DNA of 64,000 nucleotides from an uncultured Actinomycetes bacterium (lineage in GTDB: Bacteria; Actinomycetota; Thermoleophilia; UBA2241), in NCBI GenBank assembly GCA_963725665.1, contig CAVRZA010000001.1, positions 480,001-544,000 of the forward strand, in the 5' to 3' direction. Below the pieces are notes generated by a model. The model saw nothing but the letters and a program-made list of their open reading frames with translations. It made no database searches and was not told the origin of the DNA. Numbering within the stretch: position 1 is the first letter of the stretch; each line of letters opens with the position of its first letter. Both the position numbers and the translations under genes were made by a program. Shown piece by piece: positions 2,854 through 53,334 of the stretch.

Positions 2854-3012
2854 CTAGTGCTCCGCGAACACCAGCCCCGCGATCAGCGCTGCCGCCTCCC
2901 CCTGCACCGCCGGGGTGGCGTGCGAGTAGGCGTTGAGCGTGATCGAGACGGTGGCGTGACCAAGCCGCTCGGACACGACCTTGGGGTGCACGCCGGCCTG
3001 CAGCGCCAGGGT
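2854..3012 (-). repeat. Integrase 3'-end remnant (tail 1)
   Basis: Minus strand encodes TLALQAGVHPKVVSERLGHATVSITLNAYSHATPAVQGEAAALIAGLVFAEH*. Confidence 0.9.
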
Positions 3013-3023
3013 GAGCAACAGCA

Positions 3024-3641
3024 TCAAGTGTTCTTCAGCACGATGCTCTCGAGGATGTTGGCGACGTCCTCACACTGGTCGATCGCACCCTCGAGTGTCG
3101 CGTAGATGTCCTTCCACTTGATGATGTCGGTGCACTTCATGTCGCCGTCGAACAGCTCGGCGACGGCGTCGCGATAGAGCCGGTCGCCGTCGTTTTCGAG
3201 GCGGTTGACCTCGATCCAGTGCTCGTCGAGGCCCTTGCGCTTCTCGAGGTTGTCGATGGCCGTCTTGAGCACGGCCGTCTGCTTGGCGATCACCGCGGCC
3301 TGCTCGACGGCCTGCTTCGTGGGCGCCTCGATGCGGTAGAGGACCATCATGTCGGCCGCCGCTTCGATGCTGTCGAGGACTTCGTCGAGGGTGGCGGCGA
3401 GGTCGTAGATGTCTTCGCGCTCGAGGGGCGTGATGAAGGTCTTGTTCAGGCGCCCGACGATGTCGTGCACGAGCTTGTCGCCGACGTGCTCGAGATCGAA
3501 CATCTGGCGGGCCTTGCCCTTCGCGTCGTGGAAGTCGCTCGTGAGCGAGACGAGGAGCTGCGCCGCCGCGTCGAGGTTGGCGGCGAACTCCGAGAACAGG
3601 CGGAAGTACTCCCGCTCCTGCGGTACCAGGTTGAGTTTCAC
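3024..3641 (-). CDS. DUF47 / PhoU-like phosphate transport regulator
   Basis: LEHVGDKLVHDI...LNKTFITPLEREDI, LENDGD...WKDIY..LE.AID.CEDVAN; GTG start after GGAGGGG. Confidence 0.9.
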   Translation of the reverse strand: MKLNLVPQEREYFRLFSEFAANLDAAAQLLVSLTSDFHDAKGKARQMFDLEHVGDKLVHDIVGRLNKTFITPLEREDIYDLAATLDEVLDSIEAAADMMVLYRIEAPTKQAVEQAAVIAKQTAVLKTAIDNLEKRKGLDEHWIEVNRLENDGDRLYRDAVAELFDGDMKCTDIIKWKDIYATLEGAIDQCEDVANILESIVLKNT

Positions 3642-3846
3642 GCGGCCCCCTCCTGACCGGTCAAGCCCCTCTTCATAGGCAAGCGAGGGGCGGGGCCCTC
3701 GGGACATCTATGGTAGCGGAGTGGCACGGCGGATCAACCGATGGGCCGACACCCACAGCACCCTCCGACTGAGACCAGCGACGCGATCGTTACCCCCGGG
3801 CTACGGATGCGACCGCTGCGGGTGCACGATGGCTGCGGACCTCAAG

Positions 3847-4320
3847 TCACTCGGTGCTGAACACCAGCCCCGCGATCAGTGCCGCCGCCTCCTCCTGCAT
3901 CGCCGGGATGGCATGCGAGTAGGTGTCGAGGGTGATCGAGACGGTGGCGTGACCGAGGCGCTCGGAGACGACCTTGGGATGCACACCGGCCTGCAGGGCC
4001 AGCGTCGCATGGGTGTGGCGCAGGTCGTGCAGACGGATCTGTGGCAACATCGCCTTCTTGACCGCCTGACGGAAGTAGCGTGAGACATCCTCGGGGTCGA
4101 GGGCCTCGCCGTTCTCGAGCGTGAAGACGAACCCCGTCTCGACCCACCCGTCCGCCCAGTCGCTCTGCTCGTCGAGCTGGCGTTGAGCCTGCTTCTTGAG
4201 GACCTCGACGGTTGCGGGGTCGAGGGCGATCACCCGCCGACCTTTGGCTGTCTTGGGCTCACTGACGACGACCTCGCCGTTGATGGGGATGAGGGCGCGG
4301 CGTACAGAGAGACGAGCGTT
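3847..4320 (-). pseudogene. Integrase C-terminal remnant (tail 2, ~157 codons)
   Basis: ARLSVRRALIP...PKTAKGRR...IRLHDLRHTHAT...LGHATVSITLDTYSH; abuts the MFS stop codon. Confidence 0.92.
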
Positions 4321-5557
4321 ACTGCAGTCCGGGAGAGGTAGTCGCCGGCACCGCCGGCCGGACTCTCTGCAGCGCAAACAGGACGCTGCCCAGCAAGCCT
4401 GTCGCCAAGATGAGCAGGCAGGCGCCGCGTGCACCCAGATCGTCCATGGCAATCCCACCCAGGGTGGGTCCCAGGGCGAGACCGCCTATCCAGACCAGCG
4501 TCCAGGCGCCCATGTAGCGTCCCCGCAACTCCTCGGGGGCCATCTCGGAGACGATCGTCGACGATATAGGCACGAGCAGCACCACGCCCAGGCTGACCAG
4601 TAGCACCAACGCCACGATGGGCCAGCCTGGCCCAACGAAGGCCACGCCGCCCATCCCAAGCCCGATGAGAGCGCTGGCGACCGCCATGAGGCTCATCTTG
4701 TCGCAGCCGCGCAGGCGGCGCACGAGGGGGTACTGCAGGAGCACTGCGGTCAGCGCGTAGAGGGTAACGAGCAGGCCCCAGTTGGCGGCCGAGATGCCGA
4801 GCAGGCTGGCCACCGCCACGGGGAAGGTCACCCAGAGCTGACCAAAGCCGTAGAGCGGCAGCACCATAAGAGTGCAGAAGGCAAGGAAGTGACGATCGGC
4901 AAAGACGACACGATAGCCGGCCAGCGTCGAGACGGCGGTCTCGGCCTGTGTGCGCGTGGCGGGCTTGGTCTCTTTGAGCCAGAGCAGGGTGAGCAGCACG
5001 AAGAGCAGGCAGACCGCGCCCCCCAGGGCAAAGAGGGTGCGGAAGCCGAACCCGGCGCGGAGCAGGAAGCTAGCGCAGAGGGGCCCCACGACCATGCCGG
5101 CGCTCACGGCCACGCGACTTAGGGAGTAGGCCTCGGCCCGTCGGGCGAGGGGCGTGAGGTCGGCGATGATGGCGTTGTTGGCCGTCATGAACATGGCCCA
5201 GCCACAGCCGGCCTCGAAGGCGATCACGAGCACTACTGGCCAGAGGCCTTGCGAGAAGGCGAGGCCTTCCCAGAGGACGGCGCTGGCGCAGATACCGAGG
5301 ACGAGCACGGGGCGACGGCCGTAACGGTCGGCGATAGCGCCACCGAGGATCAGCACGGGCAGGCCGACGAACATCGGCAAGCCGATGATGAGCCCGACGG
5401 TCGTCATGGTAATGTGCAGGTGGCCGTGCAGGTAGATAGTCTCGTAGGGGTAGCCAAAGTTATAGCCCAGGTGGAAGATGAAGGTGCCCGTCACAAGCAG
5501 CCAGAAGGCGGCCGGGAAGACTCGGCCGCGAGCGCGCACGCTTGTTAGCAACCCCAC
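4319..5557 (-). CDS. MFS transporter
   Basis: About 12 hydrophobic segments; motif A GAIADRYGRRP; APEELRGRYMG. Confidence 0.9.
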   Translation of the reverse strand: MGLLTSVRARGRVFPAAFWLLVTGTFIFHLGYNFGYPYETIYLHGHLHITMTTVGLIIGLPMFVGLPVLILGGAIADRYGRRPVLVLGICASAVLWEGLAFSQGLWPVVLVIAFEAGCGWAMFMTANNAIIADLTPLARRAEAYSLSRVAVSAGMVVGPLCASFLLRAGFGFRTLFALGGAVCLLFVLLTLLWLKETKPATRTQAETAVSTLAGYRVVFADRHFLAFCTLMVLPLYGFGQLWVTFPVAVASLLGISAANWGLLVTLYALTAVLLQYPLVRRLRGCDKMSLMAVASALIGLGMGGVAFVGPGWPIVALVLLVSLGVVLLVPISSTIVSEMAPEELRGRYMGAWTLVWIGGLALGPTLGGIAMDDLGARGACLLILATGLLGSVLFALQRVRPAVPATTSPGLQ

Positions 5558-5862
5558 GGCGGTCCTCTCCCTCTCCCCGCTAGCTGCCTCTTGTCATCCT
5601 AGCTCACACAGCGCCTGCCCGCGCCCTGGTCGGCAGCGGCGAGGCTGGCCGAATCAGTTGGATGGGCAGTTGCTGCTGCGGCAGGATCTCCAACAGCTCG
5701 TCCGCCGGCATCGCGTCGGCGGTGACACCGAAGTGGCTGCACGTGCCGAGGATCTTCAGACGCGACACGTTACGTGAACCTGTGACGACTGTGTCCGGGG
5801 ACTCAACCATCCCGCTTGGACGCCGGCGCGGCGGATGGCAGAACCGGTGTACGCTACCCGCC

Positions 5863-12281: not shown

Positions 12282-15200
12282 ATGTCGAAGCACTTGCAGG
12301 GAGTCATGACGAAGCACTTCTGGCGCGTCGGCGCTGCGACCGGCATCGCTCTTGTCGCGGTGCTCGTTGTCTGTGCCCCTGCCCAGGCGACCGTCGTGAA
12401 GCTCTCCGTGCCGAAGATGAGCCGCATGGCGACGACCGTCGTGGTCGGCCGCGTGGCGTCGGCGACACCACGACACGTGTCCGGCCACGGGTGGGGCTCG
12501 ATCGTCACCGACACCACCCTGCGCATCGACACCGTGCTTAAGGGCACGGCGCCGGCGACGCTGACTCTGCACCTGCCCGGCGGGCGCATCGGCAGCGTGC
12601 GGGAGGTCGTGGAAGACGTCCCGACGTTGGCGCCGGGCGACAGCTACATCCTCTTCCTCGACGGCCAGGGTCGCATCGTCGGCTGGAGCGAGGGAGCGCT
12701 GCCGGTGGTGGGCGGCGCGGTGCCCGCCCTCGGCGGCGCGCCGCTGCGCGCCGCCGAGGGCATCATCCACCGCGCCGCCCACCCCTCGCTTACGGGCCCG
12801 CTGCGGACCTCGGCAGGTGAGGCGACGCTGGCGCGGCCGGCGCTCGCGTCGCCGCTCGCGCCGCTCCCCGCCAGCGTCACCGCCGACTCCACCGTCGCCC
12901 TTCTGAGCAGCGACTTCGAGGCAGGCATGTCGGGCTGGACGCTCGCCGGCTCGCCGACCTGGGGTCGCACGACCTACCGCAAGCAGGCCGGTTCGTACTC
13001 GGCCTACTGCGCCCAGAGCACGACCGCCGCCCCCGGCCCTTACTCAAACTCCATGAGCAATTGGATGGTGGCCGGCCCCTTCGACCTCAGCGACGCCACC
13101 TCCGCTGCGCTGAACTTCGACACTCGGTTCGACCTGGCGAGCAACGACTGGCTCATGGTCGGCTTCTCCACCGACGGCAGCAACTTCGACCTGATGGGGT
13201 GGCAGGGCGCCTCGTCGGGAGGCTGGTATCAGGACACCGAGGACCTGAGCAGCTTCGGCGGCACGAGCTACATCGGACAGCCCCAGGTGTGGGTCGCCTT
13301 GCGCTTCACCTCCGACGCCAGCGGCACCGCCGAGGGCGCCTACGTCGACAACGTCCTTCTGACCAAGCAGACGGGCGCGGCGCCGACGATCACGAACATT
13401 ACGCCCGCGTCGGCCTCGGCGGGCACCGGCAGCCAGGTGACGATCACCGGCACCGGGTTCGGCGCCACGCAGGGCACGGGCAGCGTCAACTTCTACTACG
13501 ACGGCACCGACACGATTCCCGGTCCGGTCACCTCGTGGAGCGACACCCAGATCGTCTGCACGGTGCCCACGGCGACGGTGAAGGGGTATCCCGCCTCGAC
13601 GGGCAGCGGGCCCGTGACGGTGACCGACGGCACGGGCACGACTGGCCCCAGCTACAACGGCTTCTCCGTGCCCTTCGGCTACGGCGGCACGAAGTGGAGC
13701 GGCCTGGGCATGACCTACCGGGTCAACCCCAACACCGCCGACACGACCAACGCGGAGGCGCTCGCCGATGCCGGCGCCTCGACCTGGAACGGCAACTCGC
13801 TGTTCGGCTTCACCGACGGCGGTCTGTGCTCGACCAGCTCCGTCGGCTATGACGGCCACGACGACATCTTCTGGGGCACCGGCCTGCCCGCCGGCGTGCT
13901 CGCGCAGGCCAGCTATTGGTTCTCGGGCTCGACGCTGAGCGAGGCCGACATCGAGTTCAACGACAGCTACACCTGGAGCGACGGCTCCGGCAGCACCTAC
14001 GACGTCCAGTCGATCGCCACGCACGAGCTGGGGCACACGCTCAACCTGCGCGACCTCTATGGCGCCAACGACACCAGCAAGGTCATGTACGGCTACGGCA
14101 GCAGCGGGCAGCAGAAGCGCACCCTCGATCCGGGCGACGCCGCCGGCATCGCCTGGATCTACGGTTCGGCCACACCGATGAGCGGCACGATGGTCGTGAA
14201 CAACGATGCTGCCTACACGAAGAGCACCACGGTGACGCTGGACTCGGCGATCGTCGGCGCCACGCAGATGCACTTCCGCAACCAGGGCGGGTCATGGTCG
14301 GCGTGGGAAGCCTACTCGTCCACGAAGAGCTGGACGCTGGCGGCCGGCGGCGACGGGGTGCGGACGGTCGAGGCGGAGTACAAGGACGCCGCCGCCAACA
14401 TCTACGCGCAGTCCGACTCGATCACCCTCGACGCCACCGGACCGACGACCGCCCAGTCCGGCGGCGGCTCCGACTGGCACACGACCGACGCCACCGTCAC
14501 CTTCACGCCGACCGATGCAGGATCGGGCATGAGCGGCGGCTCGGCCAAGACACAGTACTCGACCAACGGCGGCACGACCTGGACGACGGGCGCGAGCGTG
14601 ACCATCGTCGCCGACCCTGCGGGGCACACGACCGACGGCGTCCACGCGATCAGCTACCGCTCGACCGACGCCATCGGCAACGTCGAGACCGTGCAGACGA
14701 CCACCCTCAACATTGACACCACGCCACCGAAGACGACCCTCGTCCCGGTCCGGCTCTACGAGCTCGGCTACTGGAACAACGCTCCCTGCAGCTTCACGTT
14801 CACGGCCTCCGACGCTGGCTCGGGCGTTGCCCAAACACAGCTCAACGTCGACAACCACGGTTGGCTTCCATGGAGCCCCGGTGCCAGCGACACGTTGCCT
14901 GCCCCCGCCGACCACTCGAACGACGGCACGCACACGTTGCTCCTGCGCTCTGTCGATGTGATCGGCAATCTCGAGACCGCGCAGCAGTTCTCGCTCGGCA
15001 TCGACACGAGACGGCCGTCTGCGCGGACGCCCTATGCCAGCACCGTGCGCCGCTACGCGTACGCCACGCTGAAGTTCAAGGTCCTCGACGCGCGGCCCAG
15101 CGCCGGTTCCTGTCGGGTGGTCATCAGGGTGAAGACGCTGAGTGGCCGGCTCAAGGCGAAGTTCTCCCCGACGCGCTGGTACACGTGCGGCACACTGTAT

Positions 15201-15317
15201 TCCTACCGCTTCCGTTGCCGCCTTGCCCATGGCAAGTACACGTTCAGTGTGACCACGTACGACGGCGCGCGGAACGTCTCGGCCAAGGCTGCTCATAACT
15301 ACCTGACGGTGCGGTGA
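12282..15317 (+). CDS. Secreted matrixin-like (M10-type) zinc metalloprotease with IPT/TIG and Ig-like domains
   Basis: Signal peptide; PTITNITP..GxxVTITGTGFG (IPT/TIG); EADIEFN...HELGHTLNL...VMY Met-turn. Confidence 0.85.
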   Translation: MSKHLQGVMTKHFWRVGAATGIALVAVLVVCAPAQATVVKLSVPKMSRMATTVVVGRVASATPRHVSGHGWGSIVTDTTLRIDTVLKGTAPATLTLHLPGGRIGSVREVVEDVPTLAPGDSYILFLDGQGRIVGWSEGALPVVGGAVPALGGAPLRAAEGIIHRAAHPSLTGPLRTSAGEATLARPALASPLAPLPASVTADSTVALLSSDFEAGMSGWTLAGSPTWGRTTYRKQAGSYSAYCAQSTTAAPGPYSNSMSNWMVAGPFDLSDATSAALNFDTRFDLASNDWLMVGFSTDGSNFDLMGWQGASSGGWYQDTEDLSSFGGTSYIGQPQVWVALRFTSDASGTAEGAYVDNVLLTKQTGAAPTITNITPASASAGTGSQVTITGTGFGATQGTGSVNFYYDGTDTIPGPVTSWSDTQIVCTVPTATVKGYPASTGSGPVTVTDGTGTTGPSYNGFSVPFGYGGTKWSGLGMTYRVNPNTADTTNAEALADAGASTWNGNSLFGFTDGGLCSTSSVGYDGHDDIFWGTGLPAGVLAQASYWFSGSTLSEADIEFNDSYTWSDGSGSTYDVQSIATHELGHTLNLRDLYGANDTSKVMYGYGSSGQQKRTLDPGDAAGIAWIYGSATPMSGTMVVNNDAAYTKSTTVTLDSAIVGATQMHFRNQGGSWSAWEAYSSTKSWTLAAGGDGVRTVEAEYKDAAANIYAQSDSITLDATGPTTAQSGGGSDWHTTDATVTFTPTDAGSGMSGGSAKTQYSTNGGTTWTTGASVTIVADPAGHTTDGVHAISYRSTDAIGNVETVQTTTLNIDTTPPKTTLVPVRLYELGYWNNAPCSFTFTASDAGSGVAQTQLNVDNHGWLPWSPGASDTLPAPADHSNDGTHTLLLRSVDVIGNLETAQQFSLGIDTRRPSARTPYASTVRRYAYATLKFKVLDARPSAGSCRVVIRVKTLSGRLKAKFSPTRWYTCGTLYSYRFRCRLAHGKYTFSVTTYDGARNVSAKAAHNYLTVR

Positions 15318-15398
15318 CCCCCGAGGACCAATCAAGGAGCCTCTCCTCAAGGGCATGGTCGTCGTCGCAGAAGGCGCCCAGTGCGAAGGAGTGTACCG

Positions 15399-15540: not shown

Positions 15541-15543
15541 CAC

Positions 15544-15812
15544 TGCCGACACATTGCCGACGAGACGCCACACCACGGCCCAACATGGGCACGATCCATC
15601 ACCGAGACGGCGCTGAACCTTGGACTGTGCAGCACCTTTGCACACGAGGCACCACGGCTCGGCACGCCTTCCTGAGGTTTCCTAAACCTGGTGTCGTAGG
15701 TTCGATTCCTACCGGGGGCACCAGCTTTTCCCTGCATATGGCGATTTCTCCTTCTCCTCGAAGTGCGCGTTTCTGGCCGAATCGGCAAGATTGCCGACAT
15801 TCTGCCGACGAG
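15544..15812 (+). mobile_element. attP-like junction: tRNA-Arg(CCT) 3' half flanked by paired TGCCGAC repeats
   Basis: 15676-15723 GGTTTCCTAAACC...GGTTCGATTCC...GGGGGCACCA lacks the tRNA 5' half; TGCCGAC pairs at 15544/15555 and 15792/15803. Confidence 0.8.
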
Positions 15813-16317: not shown

Positions 16318-16388
16318 GGCTTCGCCGCGAACACCAGCCCCGCGATCAGTGCCGCCGCCTCTTCCTGCATCGCCGGGATGGCGTGAGA
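16314..16388 (-). repeat. Integrase 3'-end remnant (tail 3), interrupted by IS630
   Basis: SHAIPAMQEEAAALIAGLVFAAKP*. Confidence 0.9.
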
Positions 16389-17130
16389 CTAGTACTCTGG
16401 CTCGTAAGTTCGCTCACGTAAGTGGCTTCCCTCAGGCGGCTATCTCGGCGACGGGCGCGTCCTCTGCGAGGCGAGCCATGAGGTTGTCAAGGTCGCCCCG
16501 CGTGAACCTCCAGTCGAAGGGGACGGCAGCCCGCTCGTAGCGGGCCTGGAAGGCCAGGAGGCGCTCAGCGAGCTCCTCGGGCGAGGCGAAGTCGGCAGGG
16601 GTGAGCACCTTGCGCTACACGACCGAGAAGTAGATCTCGACCTGGTTGAGCCAGCTGGCGTGGATTGGCAGGTGCACGAGCACGAGCTTGGGGTAGGCCG
16701 CCGCCAGGCGCCGAATCGAGGCCGCGCCACGGTGCGAGGAGCCGTTGTCGACCACCCAGAACACGCGCCGCGCCGCGGTAGGGCGGGCTTTCCATCACCT
16801 GATCGACCAGCCTCGTGAAGGGCGCGCTGCCAGTGGCCGGCTCGATGCGTCCGAAGAGCCTGGCGCGGTGCAGGTTCCAGGCGGCCAGGGTAGGCCAGCG
16901 TGCCGCGGCGCTCGTACTCGTGCTCGACACGGCGGCAGACACCCGGCCGGGGTGGCGTTGCGCGGTGGCGGCGAGAGAGCACCTGCAGCTGGGTCTTCTC
17001 GTCGGCCGAGATCACGTACTCATCGACTTCAAGCCGCCTCCCCTGCCAGGTCCGGCCGTAGAGGTCGAGCACTCGGCCCGCCTTGGACTCGAAGTCGGGG
17101 TCGCGCGGGAAGAGCCAGCTGCGCTGACAC
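16389..17130 (-). mobile_element. IS630-family transposase remnant (5'-truncated, frameshifts, stop)
   Basis: FPRDPDF..KAGRVLDLY, ISADEKT, EHEYERRGT, VVDNGSSH, HLPIHASWLNQVEIYFS; end at CTAG. Confidence 0.85.
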
Positions 17131-18194: not shown

Positions 18195-18325
18195 TCAAGC
18201 CTCCAATACCAGACCCGCAATCAGCGCCCCCGCCTCCTCCTGCATAGCCGGGATGGCGTGCGAGTAGGTGTCCAGGGTGATCGAGACGGTGGCATGTCCG
18301 AGGCGCTCTGAGACGACCTTGGGAT
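18195..18325 (-). repeat. Integrase 3'-end remnant (tail 4)
   Basis: PKVVSERLGHATVSITLDTYSHAIPAMQEEAGALIAGLVLEA*. Confidence 0.9.
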
Positions 18326-19049: not shown

Positions 19050-19157
19050 CTACTTCGCCGCGAACACCAGCCCCGCGATCAGCGCCGTCGCCTCCTCCTG
19101 CATCGCCGGGATGGCGTGCGAGTAGGTGTACAAGGTGATGGAGACGGTGGCGTGGCC
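19050..19157 (-). repeat. Integrase 3'-end remnant (tail 5)
   Basis: GHATVSITLYTYSHAIPAMQEEATALIAGLVFAAK*. Confidence 0.9.
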
Positions 19158-19338
19158 GGGGCGAATCGCCACGAGCATTAGCTGTGATGGCGTCCTCGCC
19201 AGCCTGTCGGACGCCGGATTGGGCTGCATCACGCGGCGGCCCCCTAAGGGGCCGCAGATGTCACAACAAATGAGAATCCCATGAGGCCGTTCATGCGCTT
19301 GCCGTCACCGCGGAGCGCGCGGCCCGAAAAGCCCAACC

Positions 19339-20376: not shown

Positions 20377-20421
20377 CGGGACTGAGGAGTCCGTGGCGGA
20401 AGCGAACCTCTCAGGGCTCAC

Positions 20422-20705
20422 CTACTTGACTGCGAAGACCAGCCCCGCGATCAGCGCCGCCGCCTCCTCCTGCAGCGCCGGGATGGCGTGCGGGTAGGTG
20501 TCGAGCGTGATCGAGACGGTGTCGTGCCCGAGGTGCTCCGAGACCACCGTGGGGTGGATGCCGGCCGGCGGGGGAGGGTGGCGTGCGTGTGGCGCAGGTC
20601 GTGCAGTTGGATGCTCGGCGCCGCCTTCTTGACTGCCTGCCCGAAGAAACGACTCACGACCTCGGGGTGCGGGGCCCGGCCGTCCTCGTGTGGAAAGATC
20701 ACCTC
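20422..20705 (-). repeat. Integrase 3'-end remnant (tail 6, divergent)
   Basis: EDGRAPHPEVVSRFFGQAVKKA..IQLHDLRHTHAT...GLVFAVK*. Confidence 0.88.
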
Positions 20706-21146: not shown

Positions 21147-21149
21147 GGG

Positions 21150-21524: not shown

Positions 21525-21705
21525 CTAGTCAGTGAACACCAGCCCCGCGATCAGCGCCGCCTCCTCCTGCATGGCCGGGATGGCGTGCGAGTAGGTGTCG
21601 AGCGTGATCGAGACGGTGGCGTGGCTGAGGCGTTCGGAAACGGCCTTTGGGTGGATTGCAGCCTGGGGGGCCAGAGCGGTATGCGTGTGCCTGAGGTCGT
21701 GCAGG
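21525..21705 (-). repeat. Integrase 3'-end remnant (tail 7)
   Basis: LHDLRHTH...PKAVSERLSHATVSITLDTYSHAIPAMQEEAALIAGLVFTD*. Confidence 0.88.
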
Positions 21706-21877
21706 CTACCTGTACTGCTCGCCCTCGCGAAGCCTCCAGGCGCTCCTGGCCGATTCCCTCCGCGGCGGGGAGGCGTTACCCTGCCGGGCCGCTTGGAAAC
21801 GGACTCGACGGCTGGGGTCCGGGGTAGAGATCTTACTTAGCGGCGCAGTGGCGCCGGGGAGCCAGGGCAAGGAGTGC

Positions 21878-22396: not shown

Positions 22397-22497
22397 CTAC
22401 GCCTCAGCGAACACCAGCCCCGCAATCAGCGCCGCCGCCTCCTCCTGCAGCGCCGGGATGGCGTGCCAGTAGGTGTCGAGCGTGATCGAGACGGTGC
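22397..22497 (-). repeat. Integrase 3'-end remnant (tail 8)
   Basis: TVSITLDTYWHAIPALQEEAAALIAGLVFAEA*. Confidence 0.9.
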
Positions 22498-23361: not shown

Positions 23362-23422
23362 AGCCCAGCTGCGGCGCTCAGCCTGCCAGGACCAACATGG
23401 GCTGCGCTCGCAGAGGACGGCC

Positions 23423-23530
23423 CTACTGCCCCGCGAACACCAGCCCGGCGATCAGCGCCGCCGCCTCCTCCTGCAGCGCCGGGATGGCGTGCGAGTAGGC
23501 GTCGAGGGTGATTGCCACGGTGGCGCGTCC
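23423..23530 (-). repeat. Integrase 3'-end remnant (tail 9)
   Basis: GRATVAITLDAYSHAIPALQEEAAALIAGLVFAGQ*. Confidence 0.9.
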
Positions 23531-23637
23531 GGGGGGAATCGCCACGGGCATCCCCTGTGGCGGCGTCTTCACCGGCCTGTCGGACGCCGGATTGGGGGAG
23601 AACACTGCAAGACGGGGACTGAGGAGGTGTCGCGCGT

Positions 23638-23751: not shown

Positions 23752-23990
23752 CCCAGAATGCTTGAGCACGGCCCAGCACCGAGCCCGCCCGGAACTTTGG
23801 ACCGTGCAGCACCTTTGCGCACGCGGCAGTACGCCCCATCACGCCTTCGGCATGTTTCCTAAACCTGGTGTCGTAGGTTCGATTCCTGCCGGGGGCACCA
23901 GCTTTCTCCTGCATATGCCGATTTCACCTGCCTTCCGAAGTGCCCCTTCCTTGCCGAATCGGCAAGATTGCCGACATTTTGCCGACGAGG
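23752..23990 (+). mobile_element. Second attP-like junction with tRNA-Arg(CCT) 3' half (23854-23900)
   Basis: Flanks homologous to 15578-15812; TGCCGAC pair at 23969/23980. Confidence 0.8.
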
Positions 23991-28738: not shown

Positions 28739-28808
28739 CTACCTTTCCGCGAAGAGCAGCCCCGCGATCAGCGCCGCCTCCTCCTGCATCGCCGGGATGG
28801 CGTGCGAG
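28739..28808 (-). repeat. Integrase 3'-end remnant (tail 10, minimal 70 bp)
   Basis: SHAIPAMQEEAALIAGLLFAER*; homology ends at the edge of the inverted repeat. Confidence 0.9.
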
Positions 28809-30122: not shown

Positions 30123-30440
30123 CTACGCTTCCGCGAACACGACTTCGCTTCCGGGAACACGAGCCCCGCGATCAGCGTTGCCTCCTCCTCCTCCTCCTCC
30201 TGCTGCTGCTGCATCGCCGGGATGGCGTGCGATTGGGTGTCGAGGGTGATCGAGACCGTGGCATGCCCCAGGCGCTCATTCTCACCTGTGACTCGACGAT
30301 CAGCGTTGCCCCCTCCTGCCGAGGCGCTCGGAGACGACCTTGGGATGCACGCCGGCCTGCAGGGCCAGGGTCGCGTGGGTGTGGCGCAAGTCGTGCAACC
30401 TGATCGTCGGTAGCATCCCCTTCTTGTCGGCTTGACGGAC
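30123..30440 (-). repeat. Rearranged integrase 3'-end remnant(s) (tail 11) with triplet expansion
   Basis: Local 17-bp duplication, (CTC)n(TGC)n expansion, then second piece IRLHDLRHTHATLALQAGVHPKVVSERLG at 30318-30440. Confidence 0.88.
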
Positions 30441-30519
30441 CCCGCTTGCGGAACGGGGCGCTTCCTGCTCGCCGCCCACGACTGCGCCGCGATTCCGTTT
30501 GACGAATGCGACCGAGCCC

Positions 30520-30604
30520 ACTGGCGCGCGAACATCAGCCCCGCGATCAGCGCCGCCGCCTCCTCCTGCATGGCCGGGATGGCGTGTGGAGTAGGTGTCG
30601 AGGG
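30520..30604 (-). repeat. Integrase 3'-end remnant (tail 12)
   Basis: HAIPAMQEEAAALIAGLMFAR. Confidence 0.88.
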
Positions 30605-30732
30605 ATGGCGATGCTGGCGTGCCGAGACTCAATCTGAGGACGCAACGCCGGCTCGATGGCTACAATGGTCATGAGGTCGAAGCTTGGTCTCATACTACTT
30701 GCGCTGACCAGAGAGCCGATTGAAGGAGCCGC

Positions 30733-31854: not shown

Positions 31855-31943
31855 CTACGTGGCGCTTAACACCAGCCCCGCGATCAACACCGCCGCCTCC
31901 TCCTGCAGCGCCGGGATGGCGTGCGAGTAGGTGTCGAGGGTGA
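31855..31943 (-). repeat. Integrase 3'-end remnant (tail 13)
   Basis: TLDTYSHAIPALQEEAAVLIAGLVLSAT*; preceded by TGCCGAC pair at 31819/31831. Confidence 0.9.
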
Positions 31944-33248: not shown

Positions 33249-34470
33249 CTACTCGCCTGCGAACACCAGCCCCGCGATCAGCGCCGCCGCCTCCTCTTGC
33301 AGCGCCGGGATGGCGTGTGAGTAGGTGTCGAGCGTGATTGAGACGGTCGCGTGCCCGAGGCGCTCGGAGACGACCTTGGGATGCACGCCGGCCTGCAGGG
33401 CCAGGGTCGCGTGTGTATGGCGCAGGTCGTGCAGCCTGATCTGTGGCAACATCGCCTTCTTCACGGCCTGGCGGAAGTAGCGCGAGACGTCCTCGGGGTC
33501 CAGAGCCTCGCCGTTCTCGAGCGTGAACACGAGCCCCGATTCGACTCCGGCCTCCTCCCATTCACTCTGCTCGTCGAGCTGGCGCTGCGCCTGCGCCTTC
33601 AGGACCTCGACGGTCACTGGGTCGAGGGCAATGACGCGGCGGCCCTTGGCCGTCTTGGGTTCGCTCACCACGACCTCGTTCTTGATGGGGATGAGGGCGC
33701 GGCGCACCTAGAGCCGCGCTTTCTCGAGGTCGACGTCGCTCCAGCGCAGGCCGAGGGCCTCGCCTCGTCTCATGCCCGTCATCGCGATCAAATGCCAGAG
33801 GGGATGGAGGCGGTCGTCCTTCACTGAGTCCAAGAACGCCTTGAGCTGCTCCTTGGTCCAGGTGCGCATCTCCTTGGTGCCGTCGCCCTTCTTGCACGGT
33901 GGGTCGGCGGCGTCCAAGGGGTTCCTGGAGATGTGACCCCACCTGACGGCGTCCTTGCAGGCCTTGTGGAGACAGGCGTGGACGTGGTTGATGGTCATGG
34001 GGGAGAGGCCCTTCTTGCCGTTCTTCTTGCCGCTCTCGGCGAGCTTCGCGTAGAGGGCGTTGACCTGACTGCCGGTGAGCTTGGCCAGCTTCAGCGCACC
34101 GATGTGGGGCACGATGTGGTAATCGACGTGCTGCACGTAGGAGTTGTAGGTCGAGGGGCGGATGGTGGCCTTTACGGCCGGCAGCCACTCCTTGGTCAGG
34201 TACTCCTTGACCGTCATCTTGGTCGGCGGCCGGTAGGTCTACTGTTCGACGGCGACGAGCAGCTTGTTCATGGCCGCCTGGCACTCCTTCTCGAGGGCAA
34301 AGCCGCCCTTGATGGCGCGGCGGCGCTCGACGGTGTCGGTCAGCTCACCACCGCACCTTGGGCAGTTCTCTTTGGGTTTGCGCTCGACCCAGTATCGCTT
34401 CCTGCAGGCCGGGCAGCGCTGGGCGTCGTGCATGCCGATGTCGACGATGTACTCCCAAGAGCCGGGATCG
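33249..34470 (-). pseudogene. Near full-length tyrosine recombinase/integrase with N-terminal zinc-ribbon insert; two in-frame TAG stops
   Basis: Three same-frame ORFs separated by TAG at 34239-41 and 33708-10; WEYIVDIG arm motif, TGMRRGE, PKT, HDLRH, LGH, catalytic Y in DTY; no clear start codon. Confidence 0.92.
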
Positions 34471-36591: not shown

Positions 36592-36753
36592 CTACTTGTT
36601 TGCGAACACCGGCCCCGCGATCAGCGCTGCCGCCTCCTCCGGCATTGCCGGGATGGCGCGCGAGTAGGTGTCCAGGGTGATGGAGACGGTGGCATGCCCG
36701 AGGCGCTCGCTGACGAGCTTGGGAAGCACGCCGGCCTGCAGGGCAAGGGTGGC
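36592..36753 (-). repeat. Integrase 3'-end remnant (tail 15)
   Basis: ATLALQAGVLPKLVSERLGHATVSITLDTYSRAIPAMPEEAAALIAGPVFANK*. Confidence 0.9.
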
Positions 36754-46761: not shown

Positions 46762-46892
46762 CTAGGTGGCGAACACCAGCCCGGCGATCAGCGCCCCCGC
46801 CTCCTCCTGCATCGCCGGGATGGCGTGCGAGTAGGTGTCGAGGGTGATCGAGACGGTGGCATGTCCGAGGCGCTCTGAGACGACCTTGGGAT
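46762..46892 (-). repeat. Integrase 3'-end remnant (tail 16)
   Basis: Same truncation point (GACCTTGGGAT|CGCTGTC) as tail 4. Confidence 0.9.
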
Positions 46893-46988
46893 CGCTGTCA
46901 TGCCCGCTCGGTTACAGCGCCCGCCCGGCAAGGGCGATCCTGAGATCGGTTTGCTCTGATCGCCTCGACCCAAAGGTGGCTCAGCACA

Positions 46989-47303
46989 TCAGCAGTTGTC
47001 TCGCTGCCGGCCTCGCTCCTGAGATGCCGCCAGGCGACAGGTCTCGCAGCAGTAGCGCTTCCTGGGGTTGTCCGTGAAGAAGAGAGAGCCGCAGAGAGGC
47101 GATGCGCAGACAGTCAGGAGCTCTCTCTTTGGATGACGCCGCGGCCGCGTCGCCAAACGTCGCGATTGCTGCGAGCGATGGAGCGCGCAGTAGAGCAGCG
47201 AGTTGTAGATGCTGAGGCGGGCTGAACAACCGGGAGCGGCGCACACGCGTCCGCTGGCGTAGGTCCGGGAAGGCGTTCCGAGAGCCACCACACGATGTCC
47301 CAT
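46989..47303 (-). CDS. Small Cys-rich CGNR-like zinc-finger protein (copy 2)
   Basis: One aa different from 18421-18735. Confidence 0.6.
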   Translation of the reverse strand: MGHRVVALGTPSRTYASGRVCAAPGCSARLSIYNSLLYCALHRSQQSRRLATRPRRHPKRELLTVCASPLCGSLFFTDNPRKRYCCETCRLAASQERGRQRDNC

Positions 47304-47550
47304 GACTGCAAGACCTCCTCGTATCCGTGACCTCTTCGCTTGAAGAGGACGTCCCGAGAACATGGTTCGGCAGGGCGTCGGACCGCCGTGAGCCGGATAG
47401 ACGGATATCCCAGGCGCTTGCGAGCCTCGCTTTCGCTTAGGATCCGGTCACCTCAGGCGGCATGGCAGCTGCGAATGCGGATGAGCGGGTCCTTCAGATG
47501 GCGCGCGCCGAGCCCTAGCCAGACCTGCCCTCTTGTCGCGCCTCGGCCTA

Positions 47551-48003: not shown

Positions 48004-48124
48004 GCCTCCACCTTCCATCCGAGTGCTCCCAACCGGGAGTTGAGAGGGCTATTCCCGAGGCGCAACGGGAGGAATCTGACCGAGCGTTTGAGGGTGCCCC
48101 GCTTCGGTGGACAGTCTCGGGTTT

Positions 48125-48189
48125 GCGTGCGACTAGATGTCGAGCGTGGTCGAGACGGTGGCGTGGCCGAGTCGCTCTGAGACCACGGT
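48125..48189 (-). repeat. Integrase internal remnant (tail 17, lacks terminal hairpin half)
   Basis: VVSERLGHATVSTTLDI*SH. Confidence 0.75.
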
Positions 48190-49385: not shown

Positions 49386-49428
49386 CGTACTCAGCGCTCG
49401 CGCGCGACGATCCTTTTCTAGGCTCGAC

Positions 49429-49686
49429 CTACTTAGCTGCGAAGACCAGTTCGGCGATTCTCGTCGCCGCCTCTTCTTGCATCGCCGGGATGGCGTGCGA
49501 GTGAGTGTCGAGCGGATTGCGACGGTGACGTGCCCGAGGCGCTCGGAGACGACCGTGGGATGTACGCCCGCTTGCAGAGCAAGGGTGGCGTGGGCGTGCC
49601 GCAGGTCATGCGGCCTGATCTGCGGCAGCATCGCCTTCTTCTCTGCCCGTCGGAAGTGGCGCGTGACTGTCTCCGGGTCGAGCGCG
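49429..49686 (-). repeat. Integrase 3'-end remnant (tail 18, divergent allele)
   Basis: ALDPETVTRHFRRAEKKAMLPQIRPHDLRH...QEEAATRIAELVFAAK*. Confidence 0.9.
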
Positions 49687-50328: not shown

Positions 50329-50437
50329 CTAGTTCCCCGCGAACACCAGCCCCGCGATCAGCGCCGCCGCCTCCTCCTGCATCGCCGGGATGGCGTGCGA
50401 GTAGGTGTCGAGGGTGATCGCGACGGTGGCGTGTCCG
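50329..50437 (-). repeat. Integrase 3'-end remnant (tail 19)
   Basis: GHATVAITLDTYSHAIPAMQEEAAALIAGLVFAGN*. Confidence 0.9.
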
Positions 50438-50543
50438 GGGCGAATCGCCACGGGCATCCCCTGTGATGGCGTCTTCACCGGCCTGTCGGACGCCGGATTG
50501 GGGGAGAACACTGCAAGACAGGGACTGAGGAGGTGTCGCGCGC

Positions 50544-50987: not shown

Positions 50988-51030
50988 CGGACTGAGGAGT
51001 CCGTGGCGGAACGAACCTCTCTGGGCTCAC

Positions 51031-51207
51031 CTACTCGCCTGCGAACACCAGCCGCGCGATCAGTGCCGCCGCCTCCTCCTGCATCGCCGGAATGGCGTGC
51101 GAGTAGGTGTCGAGCGTGATCGAGACAGTCGCCGTGTCCGAGACGTTCGCTGACGACCTTCGGGTGAACACCGGATGCAGGGCGAGGGTGGCGTGGGTGT
51201 GGCGTAG
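51031..51207 (-). repeat. Integrase 3'-end remnant (tail 20)
   Basis: LRHTHATLAL...VHPKVVSERLGH...LVFAGE*. Confidence 0.9.
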
Positions 51208-51452
51208 ACCGCCGTCACTCCCGCAGTGGTCGGGCTGGGACCCTCGTCGCAGTGGGCCCGGGCGGGTGCCAGGCCGGCGGCGACCGATAGCGCCGCTGCG
51301 AAGCCTCTGGTCAGCCGCCTCGGGGGGTGCGGCGGGTGCCCTATGCCCTGGCCGGGGGAATAGATAGTTGCACGGTCAAATGGCCGTGGCGTCGTGGCCG
51401 GCGAGAACAGTCTCGGCGGCGGACGCGTCCAGTCGCCAACGAGGACTATGCC

Positions 51453-51746
51453 ATGCCCGCACTCACCTCCCCGAAGACCTTCGACTGCGAGATCTGCAGC
51501 GCGGTCCTGAAGTCGCAGCGGGACCTCGACAACCATATGTGCTTGCTTCACGACGACTGCGGTGAGGCACGGCTCGGCACCCCGATCACGTTTCGCTGCG
51601 CCACCTGCGGGGAGGCCTTCGCGCGCCGCGGCGACCTGTATGCTCACCTGCGCCAGCGCCGCCACGGACACCCCGCCGAGTGGGATATGGCGCGTCCGCC
51701 GGGTGCGCAGCGCCTGCGCGGCCGGCCTGGGCGTCGCAGCGGCTGA
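51453..51746 (+). CDS. Small protein with two C2H2 zinc fingers
   Basis: FDCEIC...LDNHMCLLH and FRCATCGEAF....DLYAHLRQRRH. Confidence 0.75.
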   Translation: MPALTSPKTFDCEICSAVLKSQRDLDNHMCLLHDDCGEARLGTPITFRCATCGEAFARRGDLYAHLRQRRHGHPAEWDMARPPGAQRLRGRPGRRSG

Positions 51747-51829: not shown

Positions 51830-51974
51830 CTGTTTCGTCGCGACCAACAGCCCGGCGATCAGTGCCGCCGCCTCCTCCTGCAGCGCCGGGACGGCGTGCG
51901 AGTAGGTGTCGAGGGTGATGGAAACGGTGGCGTGACCGAGACGCTCCGAGACCACCTTGGGGTGGATGCCCGCG
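51830..51974 (-). repeat. Integrase 3'-end remnant (tail 21)
   Basis: AGIHPKVVSERLGHATVSITLDTYSHAVPALQEEAAALIAGLLVATK. Confidence 0.9.
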
Positions 51975-52161
51975 TGTGCGCCACGTGCAACGTGGTTCGA
52001 AGATAAGTAAGCCGCTTTGCAGGGAAGACTAATTTCACCAAGGACGCCGACATGACGGCCCTCAAAATAGCCGCGCGGGGAAGCTGATGTTGGCGAGATG
52101 AGTGCAGTATCCACTCCGAGGGCTCAAAGCGGCCAGCGGAGAGCGAGGAAGGTGACTCACC

Positions 52162-52599
52162 ATGCGAGAGACCAGGCCCAAATGGATGCGTAGCAGCAAG
52201 GGCACACCGTTCACGGGCATAGGCTCCCTGGAGGCCGACATCCTGGCCATCGTCTGGGAGAAGGACCGCGTCACCGTGCGCGACGTCTACGAGACCCTGC
52301 GCGAGCGGCGTCCGATCGCCTATACGACCGTGATGACTGTCATGAACAACCTGGTGAAGAAGAACCTGCTGGCCCAGGACAAGACGAACATCGCCTACGT
52401 CTACACGCCCGCCATCCCCGGCGCTGAGGTGGCGCAGACGATCCTCGACAGCGTCGTCAATCGTCTGTTGGGCGGGCACGCGAACGTCGCGGTCTCGCAT
52501 CTTCTGGGGCTGCGCACGACCCTGACGGCGGAGCAGACTGCCGGCCTCAAGCGTTACGCCGAGGAGCATCTCCAGGGCGATAAGCCACTTGCGGCCTAA
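52162..52599 (+). CDS. BlaI/MecI/CopY family transcriptional regulator
   Basis: GSLEADILAIVW...TVRDV...IAYTTVMTVMNNLVKK. Confidence 0.88.
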   Translation: MRETRPKWMRSSKGTPFTGIGSLEADILAIVWEKDRVTVRDVYETLRERRPIAYTTVMTVMNNLVKKNLLAQDKTNIAYVYTPAIPGAEVAQTILDSVVNRLLGGHANVAVSHLLGLRTTLTAEQTAGLKRYAEEHLQGDKPLAA

Positions 52600-52725
52600 A
52601 GGCGAGCCTGCGCTTCACGAACGTGGGGGTCACCCGCATGCAGCACGGGATGGCAGGGGACAACGGGCGCGACCGACACCCACCGTTCTTCAGGGGGAAG
52701 CAGGTAAGGACTTGCGCCGGCGCGC

Positions 52726-53055
52726 CTACTCCACCCCGATCAGGATGTCGTCGCCCTCGACCTTGACGGGGTACGACTTGACGTCGTCCGTCTTCCCCCG
52801 GACCAACAGGACCTTGGGGCCGAGCATGTTCTTGCCCGTCCGGACGTCGAATCTGGACCCGTGACGGGGACAGGTGACGATCCCGTCCTTGATGGTCCCC
52901 TGCGACAGGGTGCCGCCCCGGTGCGTGCACGTGTCCGAGATCGCGTAGAGGCTGCCCTCGAGGTTGGCCACGAGTATGGCGCCGCCGCCGTGCTCCACTC
53001 TCAGGACGCTCCCCGGAGGGATGTCGGAGATGCGAGCCGTCTTCACGAATTCCAT
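52726..53055 (-). CDS. Rieske 2Fe-2S ferredoxin
   Basis: CTHRGG...CPRHGSRFD. Confidence 0.9.
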   Translation of the reverse strand: MEFVKTARISDIPPGSVLRVEHGGGAILVANLEGSLYAISDTCTHRGGTLSQGTIKDGIVTCPRHGSRFDVRTGKNMLGPKVLLVRGKTDDVKSYPVKVEGDDILIGVE

Positions 53056-53215
53056 GGGCCACCTCCCGCACACTTCCGGCGCTGACTGTCTCCGCGCCGG
53101 CACCACGTCATCATACCCGCGCGTTCTCGATCGACGGTAGGGCAGCGAACGACCGCGGCCAGTTGTGCTCCCGGCGGTTCGCCGTCGAGTCGACGGCCGA
53201 GGCCGGCGTTGTCGT

Positions 53216-53334
53216 CTATCTGGCCGCAAAGACCAGCTCCGCGATCCTGGCCGCCGCCTCTTCCTGCGTCGCCGGGATGGCGTCGAGCGCCCGGGCCATG
53301 CCGGCGTCTCGATCACCCTCGATACCTACTCGCA
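53216..53334 (-). repeat. Integrase 3'-end remnant (tail 22) with internal inversion
   Basis: 53216-53282 minus strand AIPATQEEAAARIAELVFAAR*; 53283-53334 encodes ERPGHAGVSITLDTYS on plus strand. Confidence 0.88.

Follow-up and report, generated by a model that had tools for sequence, protein, structure and literature searches.

The window, a 64,000-nt stretch of contig C1 of an uncultured soil actinobacterium, contains a run of small cargo modules separated by 3' stumps of a single family of tyrosine integrase genes. The question is whether these stumps are working sites of a gene-capture system or the scars of older mobile elements. The second answer is favoured here: the region is a tRNA-Arg(CCT) island, in which the stumps were probably left by piled-up, fused mobile elements and later served homologous exchange.

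Integrase stumps

The near-complete integrase gene of the window (33249-34433, minus strand, 1185 nt) was used as a blastn query against the whole genome. On C1 it gave 31 HSPs, 30 of them on the minus strand; the other is a short inverted piece at 53284-53334. A sequence-only reading of the window had listed 21 integrase remnants and one near-complete gene, sharing one orientation, cut at variable 5' points and mostly retaining a stop codon, mainly TAG. This description holds. All 22 features were recovered on the minus strand, each within 32 nt of its noted start, and the cuts in the window span gene nt 712 to 1118 (Table 1). The gene's 3' end is kept in 20 of the 21 remnants, the exception being 48118-48186. 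Stop codons are TAG at 14 of 21 stumps and TGA at three, and none occurs within six codons at the other four; two of these seven stumps scored without TAG do read TAG when checked by the core pattern described below. The homology end point is identical in all stumps, ...GGGCTGGTGT/TCGC, and is followed by two to three variable codons and the stop.

Stumps are 54-460 nt long and differ pairwise by 5-20%. Very short stumps are scarce: this genome's array has one of 24-53 nt versus six of 54-84 nt. Stumps of 38-43 nt are present in relatives. One stump (18205-18325) together with its cut-side sequence is 98% identical to 46772-47459, and another (30155-30439) is split by an insert and has an expanded CAG/GAG run.

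A 32-nt core pattern, with up to seven mismatches allowed, matches 26 times on C1, always on the same strand, and six times in the other 3.16 Mb. The stumps are thus clustered and co-oriented far beyond chance; they are not scattered in random orientation. The array extends beyond the window, with 27 integrase 3' ends across approximately 85 kb. Four further stumps and a second near-full, frameshifted integrase gene lie to the left (window -6919 to -603), and stumps at 69417 and 78002 lie to the right.

Table 1. Integrase-derived features and internal attachment sites in the window (nt, position in the integrase gene).
Feature	Position	Strand	Method
Integrase 3' stump, nt 1027-1175	2864..3012	-	blastn + tblastn
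Long integrase 3' stump, nt 712-1173; cut abutted by MFS gene	3859..4320	-	blastn + tblastn
Internal att site, E1/E2 boundary: P 15586-15678, tRNA 3' half 15679-15723, P' 15724-15812	15586..15812	+	
Integrase 3' stump, nt 1110-1181; stop overlaps end of SnoaL gene	16322..16392	-	blastn
Integrase 3' stump, nt 1052-1172	18205..18325	-	blastn
Integrase 3' stump, nt 1072-1185	19050..19163	-	blastn
Integrase 3' stump, nt 915-1187; mosaic built from two other copies	20420..20688	-	blastn
Integrase 3' stump, nt 997-1173	21534..21707	-	blastn
Integrase 3' stump, nt 1087-1180	22400..22495	-	blastn
Integrase 3' stump, nt 1074-1186; truncated glyoxalase gene on cut side	23422..23534	-	blastn
Internal att site, E2/E3 boundary: P 23763-23855, tRNA 3' half 23856-23900, P' 23901-23989	23763..23989	+	
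Minimal integrase 3' stump, nt 1113-1175	28749..28808	-	blastn
Integrase 3' stump in two HSPs (starts 30155, 30319), nt 959-1079 and 1078-1173	30155..30439	-	blastn
Integrase 3' stump, nt 1079-1186	30517..30623	-	blastn
Integrase 3' stump, nt 1097-1172	31868..31943	-	blastn
Near-complete tyrosine integrase gene (head)	33249..34433	-	
Integrase 3' stump, nt 1024-1185	36592..36753	-	blastn
Integrase 3' stump, nt 1052-1175	46769..46892	-	blastn
Internal integrase fragment without 3' end, nt 1060-1128	48118..48186	-	blastn
Integrase 3' stump, nt 928-1191; different allele type (...RIAELVFAAK)	49423..49685	-	blastn
Integrase 3' stump, nt 1072-1178; belongs to glyoxalase module	50336..50442	-	blastn
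Integrase 3' stump, nt 1009-1187	51029..51207	-	blastn
Integrase 3' stump, nt 1039-1175	51840..51976	-	blastn
Minimal integrase 3' stump, nt 1118-1175	53226..53283	-	blastn
Inverted integrase nt 1068-1118, abutting the cut of stump 53226..53283 (fold-back junction)	53284..53334	+	blastn

The tRNA-Arg(CCT) gene and attachment sites

The array is located behind a full tRNA-Arg(CCT) gene (C1:468624-468699). Direct repeats of the tRNA 3' half are present as three 45-nt copies on the tRNA's own strand, at window positions 15679, 23856 and 71970, with at most two mismatches. Alignment showed a P arm (about 95 nt) common to the three partial copies only, and a P' arm (about 110 nt) common to the full tRNA and partial copies 1 and 2. 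The arms flank the repeats and recur across genera. Integration had earlier been proposed at the integrase 3' end; the actual attachment sites are the tRNA gene and its three partial copies with P/P' arms.

The partial copies with their arms divide the region into three tandem integrated elements. Two internal att sites enclose element E2 (window 15724-23855), which contains stumps and cargo only; with two flanking sites and no recombinase inside, it is a CIME-like unit. Arm remnants beside the cut were found at 0 of 25 truncated stumps in this genome, and tblastn (E 1e-4 or better) found no backbone gene remnant in the C1 array.

The integrase

An intact element in relative G014 consists of a methylase, a DnaB/AAA_25 helicase, an HTH_17 excisionase-like gene, a 364-aa ORF, the integrase, cargo and the tRNA. 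It thus carries an integrase with excision and replication genes, as is characteristic of intact tRNA-targeting elements. Against TIGR02249 (NCBIfam integron integrase), integrases of intact relatives reach 43.4 and 45.2 bits, far under the cutoff of 265, and the best PHROG match is phrog_1, phage integrase (E 4.6e-75). By these profile matches the integrase is a phage-type enzyme and not IntI.

Two in-frame TAG codons (34239-34241 and 33708-33710) break the head integrase gene of the window. Both integrase genes in the array are broken, as are both close paralogues elsewhere in the genome. Movement of the array by its own enzyme has probably ceased.

Cargo genes

Cargo gene positions are ORF calls based on GC3, made in this analysis. 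In 16 of 21 cases the closest tip-side gene lies on the plus strand, convergent with the stump; in 12 of 21 its end is 10-120 nt away from the stump. This agrees with the plus-strand cargo close to the tails that had been noted from the letters. It is not the arrangement of integron cassettes, which are co-oriented and read outward from a promoter by the integrase. Some cargo genes give only partial Pfam matches (GYD 51-90 of 91, nitroreductase 84-141 of 167, remnants of rve_3 and DDE_3). Such fragments and ORF-free stretches point to decay.

Exchange of modules at the stumps

A near-identical metagenome contig, L054, contains the NmrA, glyoxalase, cupin and 46.4-kb modules at 92-96% identity, but in a changed order. 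One crossover between L054 and this genome is bounded to stump nt 1137-1176, within the final 38 nt. Within the genome, three stump pairs have a common cut-side flank and a differing tip-side flank. Of four mapped breakpoints, three are confined to the stump's final 40 nt or the tip. One breakpoint lies ~150 nt inside a stump. One module, consisting of a 65-nt stump plus its cut-side cargo, is kept in three species of genus g2, with different neighbours each time. Stumps in the module common to these species decay like neutral DNA.

The modularity proposed earlier is borne out. Every stump lies at a module boundary, and modules change neighbours inside the stump, both within the genome and in a close relative; the array is not static at its tails. 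These alignments show reshuffling, with crossovers inside stumps. The crossover enzyme would be of the RecA type.

Arrays and deletion scars in relatives

Similar arrays beside an intact homologous integrase had been suggested as a check, and they exist: relatives have an intact head integrase and then stumps. The layout from tRNA through stumps to head integrase, always convergent, is found at loci of G015, G064, G068, G014, G003, G041, G024 and G001/G050. The order tRNA, arm, repeated cargo plus stump, and head integrase recurs across numerous genera of one uncultured family of Thermoleophilia. Stump DNA was matched in 23 of 41 relatives, and a 5.3-kb array piece in 68 of 81 family genomes, mostly via stumps. 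In 587 kb of island DNA, 111 HSPs comprise 91 3' stumps (cut from nt 636 to 1148), 14 full-length genes, six internal fragments and no 5'-only fragment. Integrase 3' ends number 105 in this DNA, versus 32 tRNA-type sites; in the present genome the numbers are 27 and four.

Deletion between tandem elements gives rise to stumps, as two scars in relatives show: a cut integrase has become joined to half of the arm belonging to the next element. At L021 (G068), integrase nt 787 directly adjoins P' arm position 54. At L050 (G001), the integrase is cut at nt 96; about 100 nt further on come only the tRNA's final 28 nt and the whole P' arm. Such deletion-fusions amount to two to three cases among the 105 integrase 3' ends. 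They are seen in relatives only, since neither arm remnants at the 25 stumps nor backbone remnants in the C1 array were found here.

Is the stump a dedicated site?

DNA folds of five out of five stump sequences were no better than shuffles on either strand (z -0.43 to +0.87), so these five are not attC-like folding sites. Reading the stump sequence revealed no inverted-repeat core with a 6-8 bp spacer, and no 7-mer is enriched in 69 cut-side and 70 tip-side flanks. Among 20 full-length genes, third-codon-position identity is 0.59-0.69 at the 3' end and 0.47-0.73 in the rest of the gene; the 3' end falls inside the rest-of-gene range and has no extra DNA-level conservation. The conservation profile of the stumps parallels that of full-length genes, with codon positions 1 and 2 slightly less conserved in stumps. 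The sharp end of the homology is simply the gene end. By comparison of alleles, the variable tip is the variable C-terminus of full-length integrases.

The sequence-only reading had proposed that circular cassettes integrate site-specifically and restore the gene with a new C-terminal tip. Neither claim is supported: tip variation is already present among full-length alleles, and the stump as an integration site lacks a hairpin, a flank motif, extra conservation and an IntI signature.

Proposed origin of the array

The builders would be small integrative elements of one family that occurs in uncultured Thermoleophilia. The front of an intact element would consist of the tRNA 3' half, the P' arm, a cargo bay and a tyrosine integrase gene converging on the tRNA. 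Behind the integrase would follow an unknown ORF, an HTH gene resembling an excisionase, a DnaB-like helicase, a methylase and lastly the P arm. Successive integration of such related elements at the tRNA site is shown by the four tRNA-type sites with arms. Deletions would then fuse neighbours, as in the two relatives with scars and, by extension, in this window. Each deletion would take the integrase 5' part, the backbone and the internal att core, and leave the 3' stump beside its original cargo. Because the stump is short and wedged between retained cargo modules, it would survive longer than the backbone, att remnants or a 5' fragment. Lastly, the stumps, as the sole sequence common to all modules, would give homology for crossovers that delete, duplicate and reshuffle modules.

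Four observations weigh against this origin. Deletion-fusions are seen in relatives only, and in few cases. Short stumps are scarce, and a minimal unit of ~50 nt could be kept for a reason. Breakpoints lie near the stump end, which a fixed site would also predict. Many modules are compact, with the close cargo spacing given above.

Alternative explanations

It is somewhat unlikely that the modules are cassettes moved by recombination without a dedicated enzyme. Circles of tip, cargo and stump would be released when two stumps, or a stump and the head gene, undergo homologous crossover, and would insert again through one crossover at any integrase 3' end. Most stumps would then derive from insertion at an integrase 3' end and not from deletion, and the stump would be a portable homology tag. 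This would account for the excess of integrase 3' ends over tRNA-type sites in this genome and in the 587 kb, the varied neighbours of the 65-nt-stump module in the three g2 species, the changed order in L054, the mosaic stump, and the absence of att and backbone remnants at cuts and in this array. However, an illegitimate cut is still required for the first stump of each lineage, and homologous crossover over 55-65 nt at ~88% identity is inefficient. The deletion route is directly visible in the scars at L021 and L050, and the broken cargo points to decay.

More generally, it is doubtful that the stumps are working attachment sites of a capture platform on a mobile tRNA-Arg element, with such circles moving in and out at the head integrase 3' end via the integrase or RecA. 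If true, the platform would be an actinobacterial analogue of the integron, whose docking site is the recombinase gene's own end.

Integron-like capture proper, as the sequence-only reading had it, is improbable. The head integrase would recombine its own 3' end with a cassette stump, in the manner of attI and attC, and acquire a new tip each time. The single end point of all stumps, the breakpoints near the tip, the scarcity of stumps under ~50 nt and the intact head integrases of relatives suit this idea. The stumps themselves do not, as they have neither fold, inverted-repeat core nor enriched flank 7-mer, and their conservation is that of an ordinary gene end. In addition, the integrase falls far below the integron model cutoff, a classical tRNA att site with arms is already available to it, and one breakpoint lies well inside a stump.

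A function of the stumps toward the cargo, for example as terminator or 3' end of a convergent transcript, is very improbable: the closeness of cargo stops and the scarcity of very short stumps would fit, but folds of either strand do not exceed shuffles, stumps of the old module in three species decay neutrally, and codon positions 1 and 2 are slightly relaxed. An artefact of collapsed or chimeric repeats can practically be dismissed: although this is a metagenome-type assembly of 12 contigs and short-read unitigs break at stumps, the stumps differ in length and sequence, independent assemblies of at least eight other genomes have the same architecture, and an unrelated metagenome contig has four of these modules.

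Comparison with known systems

SSV1-type archaeal integrases have attP inside the int gene. As in those systems, integrase gene fragments here adjoin integrated DNA. In SSV-type integration, int is split at a single fixed point and both an N and a C part remain, whereas the cuts here are spread over nt 636 to 1148 with no 5'-only part among the 111 HSPs; a split-integrase element of this type was rejected.

Integrons also have a head tyrosine recombinase by an array of small, mostly single-gene modules with a conserved boundary element. Cargo types overlap (glyoxalase/VOC, SnoaL, cupin, GNAT), and integron arrays without a working integrase exist. Unlike integrons, the present array has no IntI signature or folded attC-like site, and its cargo converges on the integrase instead of being read from a promoter beside it. 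The boundary is a pseudogene fragment of variable length, and the array lies inside a tRNA-integrating element.

Streptococcal ICEs and CIMEs form arrays by site-specific accretion, and Dehalococcoides has tandem islands at ssrA. The likeness lies in growth by repeated integration at one site, inner units that lose mobility genes and keep cargo, and an inter-unit repeat that copies a gene 3' end. In those arrays the repeat is the target gene 3' end carried on attP, of fixed length per element. Here the tRNA half-copies play that role, and the integrase stumps, with their variable 5' cuts, form a second class of repeat.

Tycheposons and other tRNA-linked islands of Prochlorococcus are described as tyrosine-recombinase elements that integrate at tRNA genes, with later arrivals displacing earlier ones deeper; the islands contain fragmented integrases and extra partial tRNAs, and they carry adaptive or metabolic cargo and an integration and replication module of integrase, excisionase and helicase (bioRxiv 10.1101/2020.12.28.424599). 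In comparison, the host phylum and the tRNA (Arg-CCT) differ, and the remnants here are almost only 3' stumps (91 versus no 5'-only fragment), co-oriented and outnumbering partial tRNAs by ~3:1. In layout and gene content the islands are alike in tRNA-site integration, piling up, integrase fragments, partial tRNAs and, in intact elements, the integrase/excisionase/helicase module.

Integrase stumps and full-length genes

The array is real, and its best reading is an accretion island at tRNA-Arg, formed by a new family of elements. In this reading the integrase remnants in it, here called stumps, are seams and provide homology for later exchange. A stump keeps the 3' end of a tyrosine integrase gene; its cut side faces the gene's 5' end and its tip side carries the stop codon. 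The 72-nt repeat family D5 (20 co-oriented copies in the window by repeat search; window GC 64-73%) is this 3' end, on the minus strand. With the near-complete integrase gene as blastn query, the genome (3.73 Mb, 12 contigs) gives 31 HSPs on contig C1, 30 of them on the minus strand. Every remnant coordinate listed in the sequence-only reading is covered; stumps shorter than about 35 nt are missed by BLAST. A 32-nt stump core pattern has 26 matches on C1, all on one strand, and six in the remaining genome. The cuts in the window fall between nt 712 and 1118, counted along the integrase gene. Stump homology has a constant end, ...GGGCTGGTGT/TCGC; past it come two to three codons that vary and then the stop, which is TAG in most cases. 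The array continues outside the window with four stumps and a second, frameshifted near-full integrase gene on the left, and two further stumps on the right; in total there are 27 integrase 3' ends across about 85 kb. Rfam has no matches in the window at gathering thresholds.

Two sites have unusual sequences. In one stump, an expanded CAG/GAG trinucleotide run replaces the usual QEEAAA codons. At the fold-back junction, minus-strand stump nt 1118-1175 adjoins inverted plus-strand nt 1068-1118, which looks like the product of hairpin-type break repair.

The integrase gene in the window is one frame of 394 codons, interrupted by two in-frame TAG codons which are read as nonsense mutations; pieces of it match Phage_integrase and Phage_int_SAM_3 in Pfam. 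Stops or frameshifts break both integrase genes inside the array, and the two close paralogues on contigs C2 and C6 are broken as well. The sole open integrase gene among those compared in this genome is also on C2, and is 49% identical. The integrase is of phage type (phrog_1, E 4.6e-75), scoring 43-45 bits with the integron-integrase model against a cutoff of 265.

Features of the array and its surroundings (plain positions count from the window start; C1, C2 and C3 are contigs of the genome)
Feature	Position	Strand	Basis or remark
tRNA-Arg(CCT), full	C1:468624-468699	plus	ARAGORN; directly left of array
tRNA-Arg partial copies 1, 2, 3	15679; 23856; 71970	tRNA's strand	last 45 nt (anticodon loop to CCA end), at most 2 mismatches
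Element E1	to 15678		att sites
Element E2	15724-23855		att sites
Element E3	23901-71969		att sites
lgt, znuA, znuB, zur-like genes	C1:468950-472954 (locus L008, 3950-7954)		left of window
WD40 protein gene	24134-28639		1501 aa, about 13 repeats
Stump with CAG/GAG run	30155-30268
Near-complete integrase gene	33249-34433	minus
In-frame TAG codons	33708-33710; 34239-34241
C2H2 zinc-finger ORF	51327-51743		PF00096, E 4e-8
Fold-back junction	53226-53334
Sigma-70/cold-shock block	53574-56054; 37536-38039 / 56203-56708		copied at C3:17992-28859
P'-like piece	about 60331		43 nt; arms from all loci as queries
P' match	68870		21 nt
P-arm-like piece	about 70778		arms from all loci as queries
Open integrase gene	C2:582105-583226

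Tandem elements at a tRNA-Arg site

The sequence-only reading overlooked a tRNA-Arg(CCT) gene, its three partial copies and their arms. Alignment shows that about 95 nt upstream (the P arm) are common to the three partial copies only, and about 110 nt downstream (the P' arm) occur after partial copies 1 and 2 as well as after the full tRNA. Copy 3 diverges from about 30 nt beyond the tRNA end, as expected at the place where host DNA resumes. This pattern of half-copies and arms is characteristic of three related elements that integrated one behind the other at the tRNA. All integrase stumps lie within E1-E3, and always on the strand opposite to the tRNA. A synteny comparison with G018 and G009, both small complete genomes, was meant to define an empty tRNA-Arg site, but their flanks map to other contigs of the genome under study. 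Assembled unitigs from public runs, compared with positions 15000-24200, are short and have mostly stump-to-stump joints. One run (X1) has three joints from the P' arm end (15814-15818) to stump tips; these are weak, with sides of only 26-33 nt.

The motif CTGGTGT is found just 3' of the tRNA anticodon stem, towards the variable loop (C1:468655-468699), and at every stump end, on opposite strands; many stump tips continue with GTAGG, like the tRNA. As a link between tRNA and stump this was rejected as possibly chance. Reading the sequences showed no matching overlap or partner arm.

Related loci

Related loci belong to uncultured Thermoleophilia and Actinomycetota MAGs. With one genome per species, 23 of 41 relatives match the stump DNA, with counts per genome capped at 21; for a 5.3-kb array segment, 68 of 81 family genomes give matches, most of them via stumps. 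In the fetched loci the order is constant: a full or partial tRNA-Arg, the P' arm, one to seven units of cargo and stump, and often a full-length integrase last. All parts of the fetched loci are convergent on the tRNA. Loci of this layout are present in G015, G064, G068, G014, G003, G041, G024, G001 and G050. Partial tRNAs are interleaved with stumps, on opposite strands, in G024, G041 and G008 (stump-pattern versus tRNA-type matches 14 to 12, 19 to 7 and 19 to 8, respectively). An apparently intact element in G014 consists of a methylase, a DnaB/AAA_25 helicase, an HTH_17 excisionase-like gene, an unknown 364-aa ORF, integrase, cargo and tRNA. In an intact-integrase scan of IMG/VR, none of the 66 pattern matches encodes a relative.

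Over 13,250 and 16,021 nt (L038/L039 and L041/L044), contig 43 of the assembly that bears the name Candidatus Cryosericum septentrionale SMC1 matches contigs of the Actinomycetota MAG palsa_647 at 100% identity, and both stretches carry integrases of the island family. This points to the same contigs in two bins, not to transfer.

Origin of the stumps

In 587 kb of island DNA (32 loci and 100 kb of this genome) there are 91 3' stumps, 14 full-length genes, six internal fragments and 32 tRNA-type sites; there are no fragments with the 5' part of the integrase only. Backbone gene remnants were not found in the array of this genome. Remnants of arms away from its four tRNA-type sites are limited to the three short pieces in the table, and none is next to a stump cut. 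Intermediates are found in relatives. In G068 (locus L021), an integrase cut at nt 787 is joined straight to position 54 of a P' arm, on the tRNA's strand. In G001 (L050), an integrase is cut at nt 96; about 100 nt further along come just the final 28 nt of the tRNA and a whole P' arm, and the crossover core is absent. In a third locus (L046), a full integrase has a P' piece about 600 nt upstream. Deletions of this kind fused two tandem elements and removed the att core between them.

In the best reading, one tRNA-Arg site gathers many related integrative elements and their cargo bays merge into one long array, in which the stump of each lost integrase marks a seam. The far end of a fusing deletion may fall anywhere in the several-kb cargo bay of the next element; arm remnants would thus be rare, as is seen. 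Only 3' stumps would remain because the integrase 3' end adjoins retained cargo; the 5' part adjoins dispensable backbone and would be lost together with it.

Cargo

Cargo and neighbour counts rest on ORFs called by our own GC3-based heuristic. Between stumps, Pfam identifies small enzymes and regulators (zinc ADH, DUF47, MFS, GNAT, SnoaL, glyoxalase, cupin, YCII, zinc ribbon, GYD, ferredoxin, NmrA-type, nitroreductase, BlaI-like repressor and Rieske), larger genes (the WD40 protein, an ammonium transporter, and an acetyl-CoA synthetase and oxoacid:ferredoxin oxidoreductase cluster) and IS remnants. Several matches are partial, and some intervals have no ORF. A convergent plus-strand gene is the tip-side neighbour of 16 of the 21 stumps, and for 12 of the 21 the tip-side gene ends within 120 nt of the stump. 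Homologues of the cupin, glyoxalase and YCII cargo in other genomes have no integrase in the fetched flanks (L010-L017).

The lgt, znuA, znuB and zur-like genes belong to att-defined E1, as they lie between the tRNA P' arm and the first stump. The WD40 gene (126-nt tandem family D1/D7) is the first past the P' arm of E3. The bacterial ORF with eukaryote-type C2H2 zinc-finger matches is a single-gene module flanked by two stumps. The sigma-70/cold-shock block has copies on C3 at 88-99% identity, and a 506-nt segment is repeated within the window at 99%. C3 also carries an integrase stump and methylase remnants, and may be a further part of the same kind of island.

Exchange of modules at stumps

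Three pairs of stumps (T003/T005, T009/T013 and T014/T016) have a common cut-side flank (96-99%) and unlike tip-side flanks. Their breakpoints are, respectively, about 150 nt inside the stump, which is a mosaic; in the last 15-20 nt; and at the tip. Other stump groups in this genome share tip-side cargo and have different cuts. Three species of genus g2 carry a module with about 1 kb of cargo and a 65-nt stump, each time beside different neighbours; the stump and the rest of the module have decayed at about the same rate.

Metagenome contig L054 is the clearest case, and the sole locus with stumps among 80 metagenome loci with glyoxalase relatives; the other 79, many on short contigs, have neither stumps nor a tRNA site. 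L054 has a tRNA-Arg site of its own and, behind it, the NmrA, glyoxalase, cupin and 46.4-kb modules of the genome under study at 92-96% identity. The order is changed, and a crossover lies within a stump. The NmrA module tip is joined to the glyoxalase module stump; in the genome under study the same tip ends the near-complete integrase gene. From marker positions, the crossover lies in stump nt 1137-1176, where the two parents are identical over 38 nt. This fits homologous exchange within the longest stretch of identity, and a fixed site would fit too.

Is the stump a dedicated site?

The sequence-only reading proposed that circular cassettes enter at the integrase 3' end and restore the gene with a new C-terminal tip. 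On either strand, five stump sequences fold as single strands no better than shuffles do (z -0.43 to +0.87), giving no sign of attC-like folding. No 7-mer is enriched in the 150-nt flanks (69 cut-side, 70 tip-side) as a second motif at module ends. Among 20 full-length genes, third-position identity at the 3' end is 0.59-0.69 versus 0.47-0.73 along the gene, showing no constraint at the DNA level; the first and second codon positions are highly conserved there, which fits a catalytic C-terminus. The conservation profile of 92 stumps tracks that of 25 full-length genes; both fall off at nt 1175/1176, where full-length alleles also differ in their C-terminal residues. A sharp 3' boundary and a 'new tip' are thus expected of any diverged alleles with differing downstream DNA. 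The supposed new tip is ordinary allelic variation, and site-specific capture finds no hairpin, flank motif, extra constraint or integron-integrase score in its favour. The odds of a dedicated capture mechanism are low.

Significance and comparison with known systems

Read as an accretion island, the window shows clearly how a flexible genomic island expands in the uncultured Thermoleophilia, a soil and peat lineage that is poorly known. Stumps can be used to count past acquisitions and to mark module boundaries, and they supply homology by which modules move between arrays. Should they turn out to be genuine sites of recombination, cassette capture would have been invented a second time, independently; the present data give no such demonstration. 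No description of stump arrays as such was found in the literature. On the accretion reading, the array belongs with the known builders of tRNA islands. In the tycheposon preprint (bioRxiv 10.1101/2020.12.28.424599), tycheposons are described as integrating successively at tRNA genes, with fragmented integrases and extra partial tRNAs.
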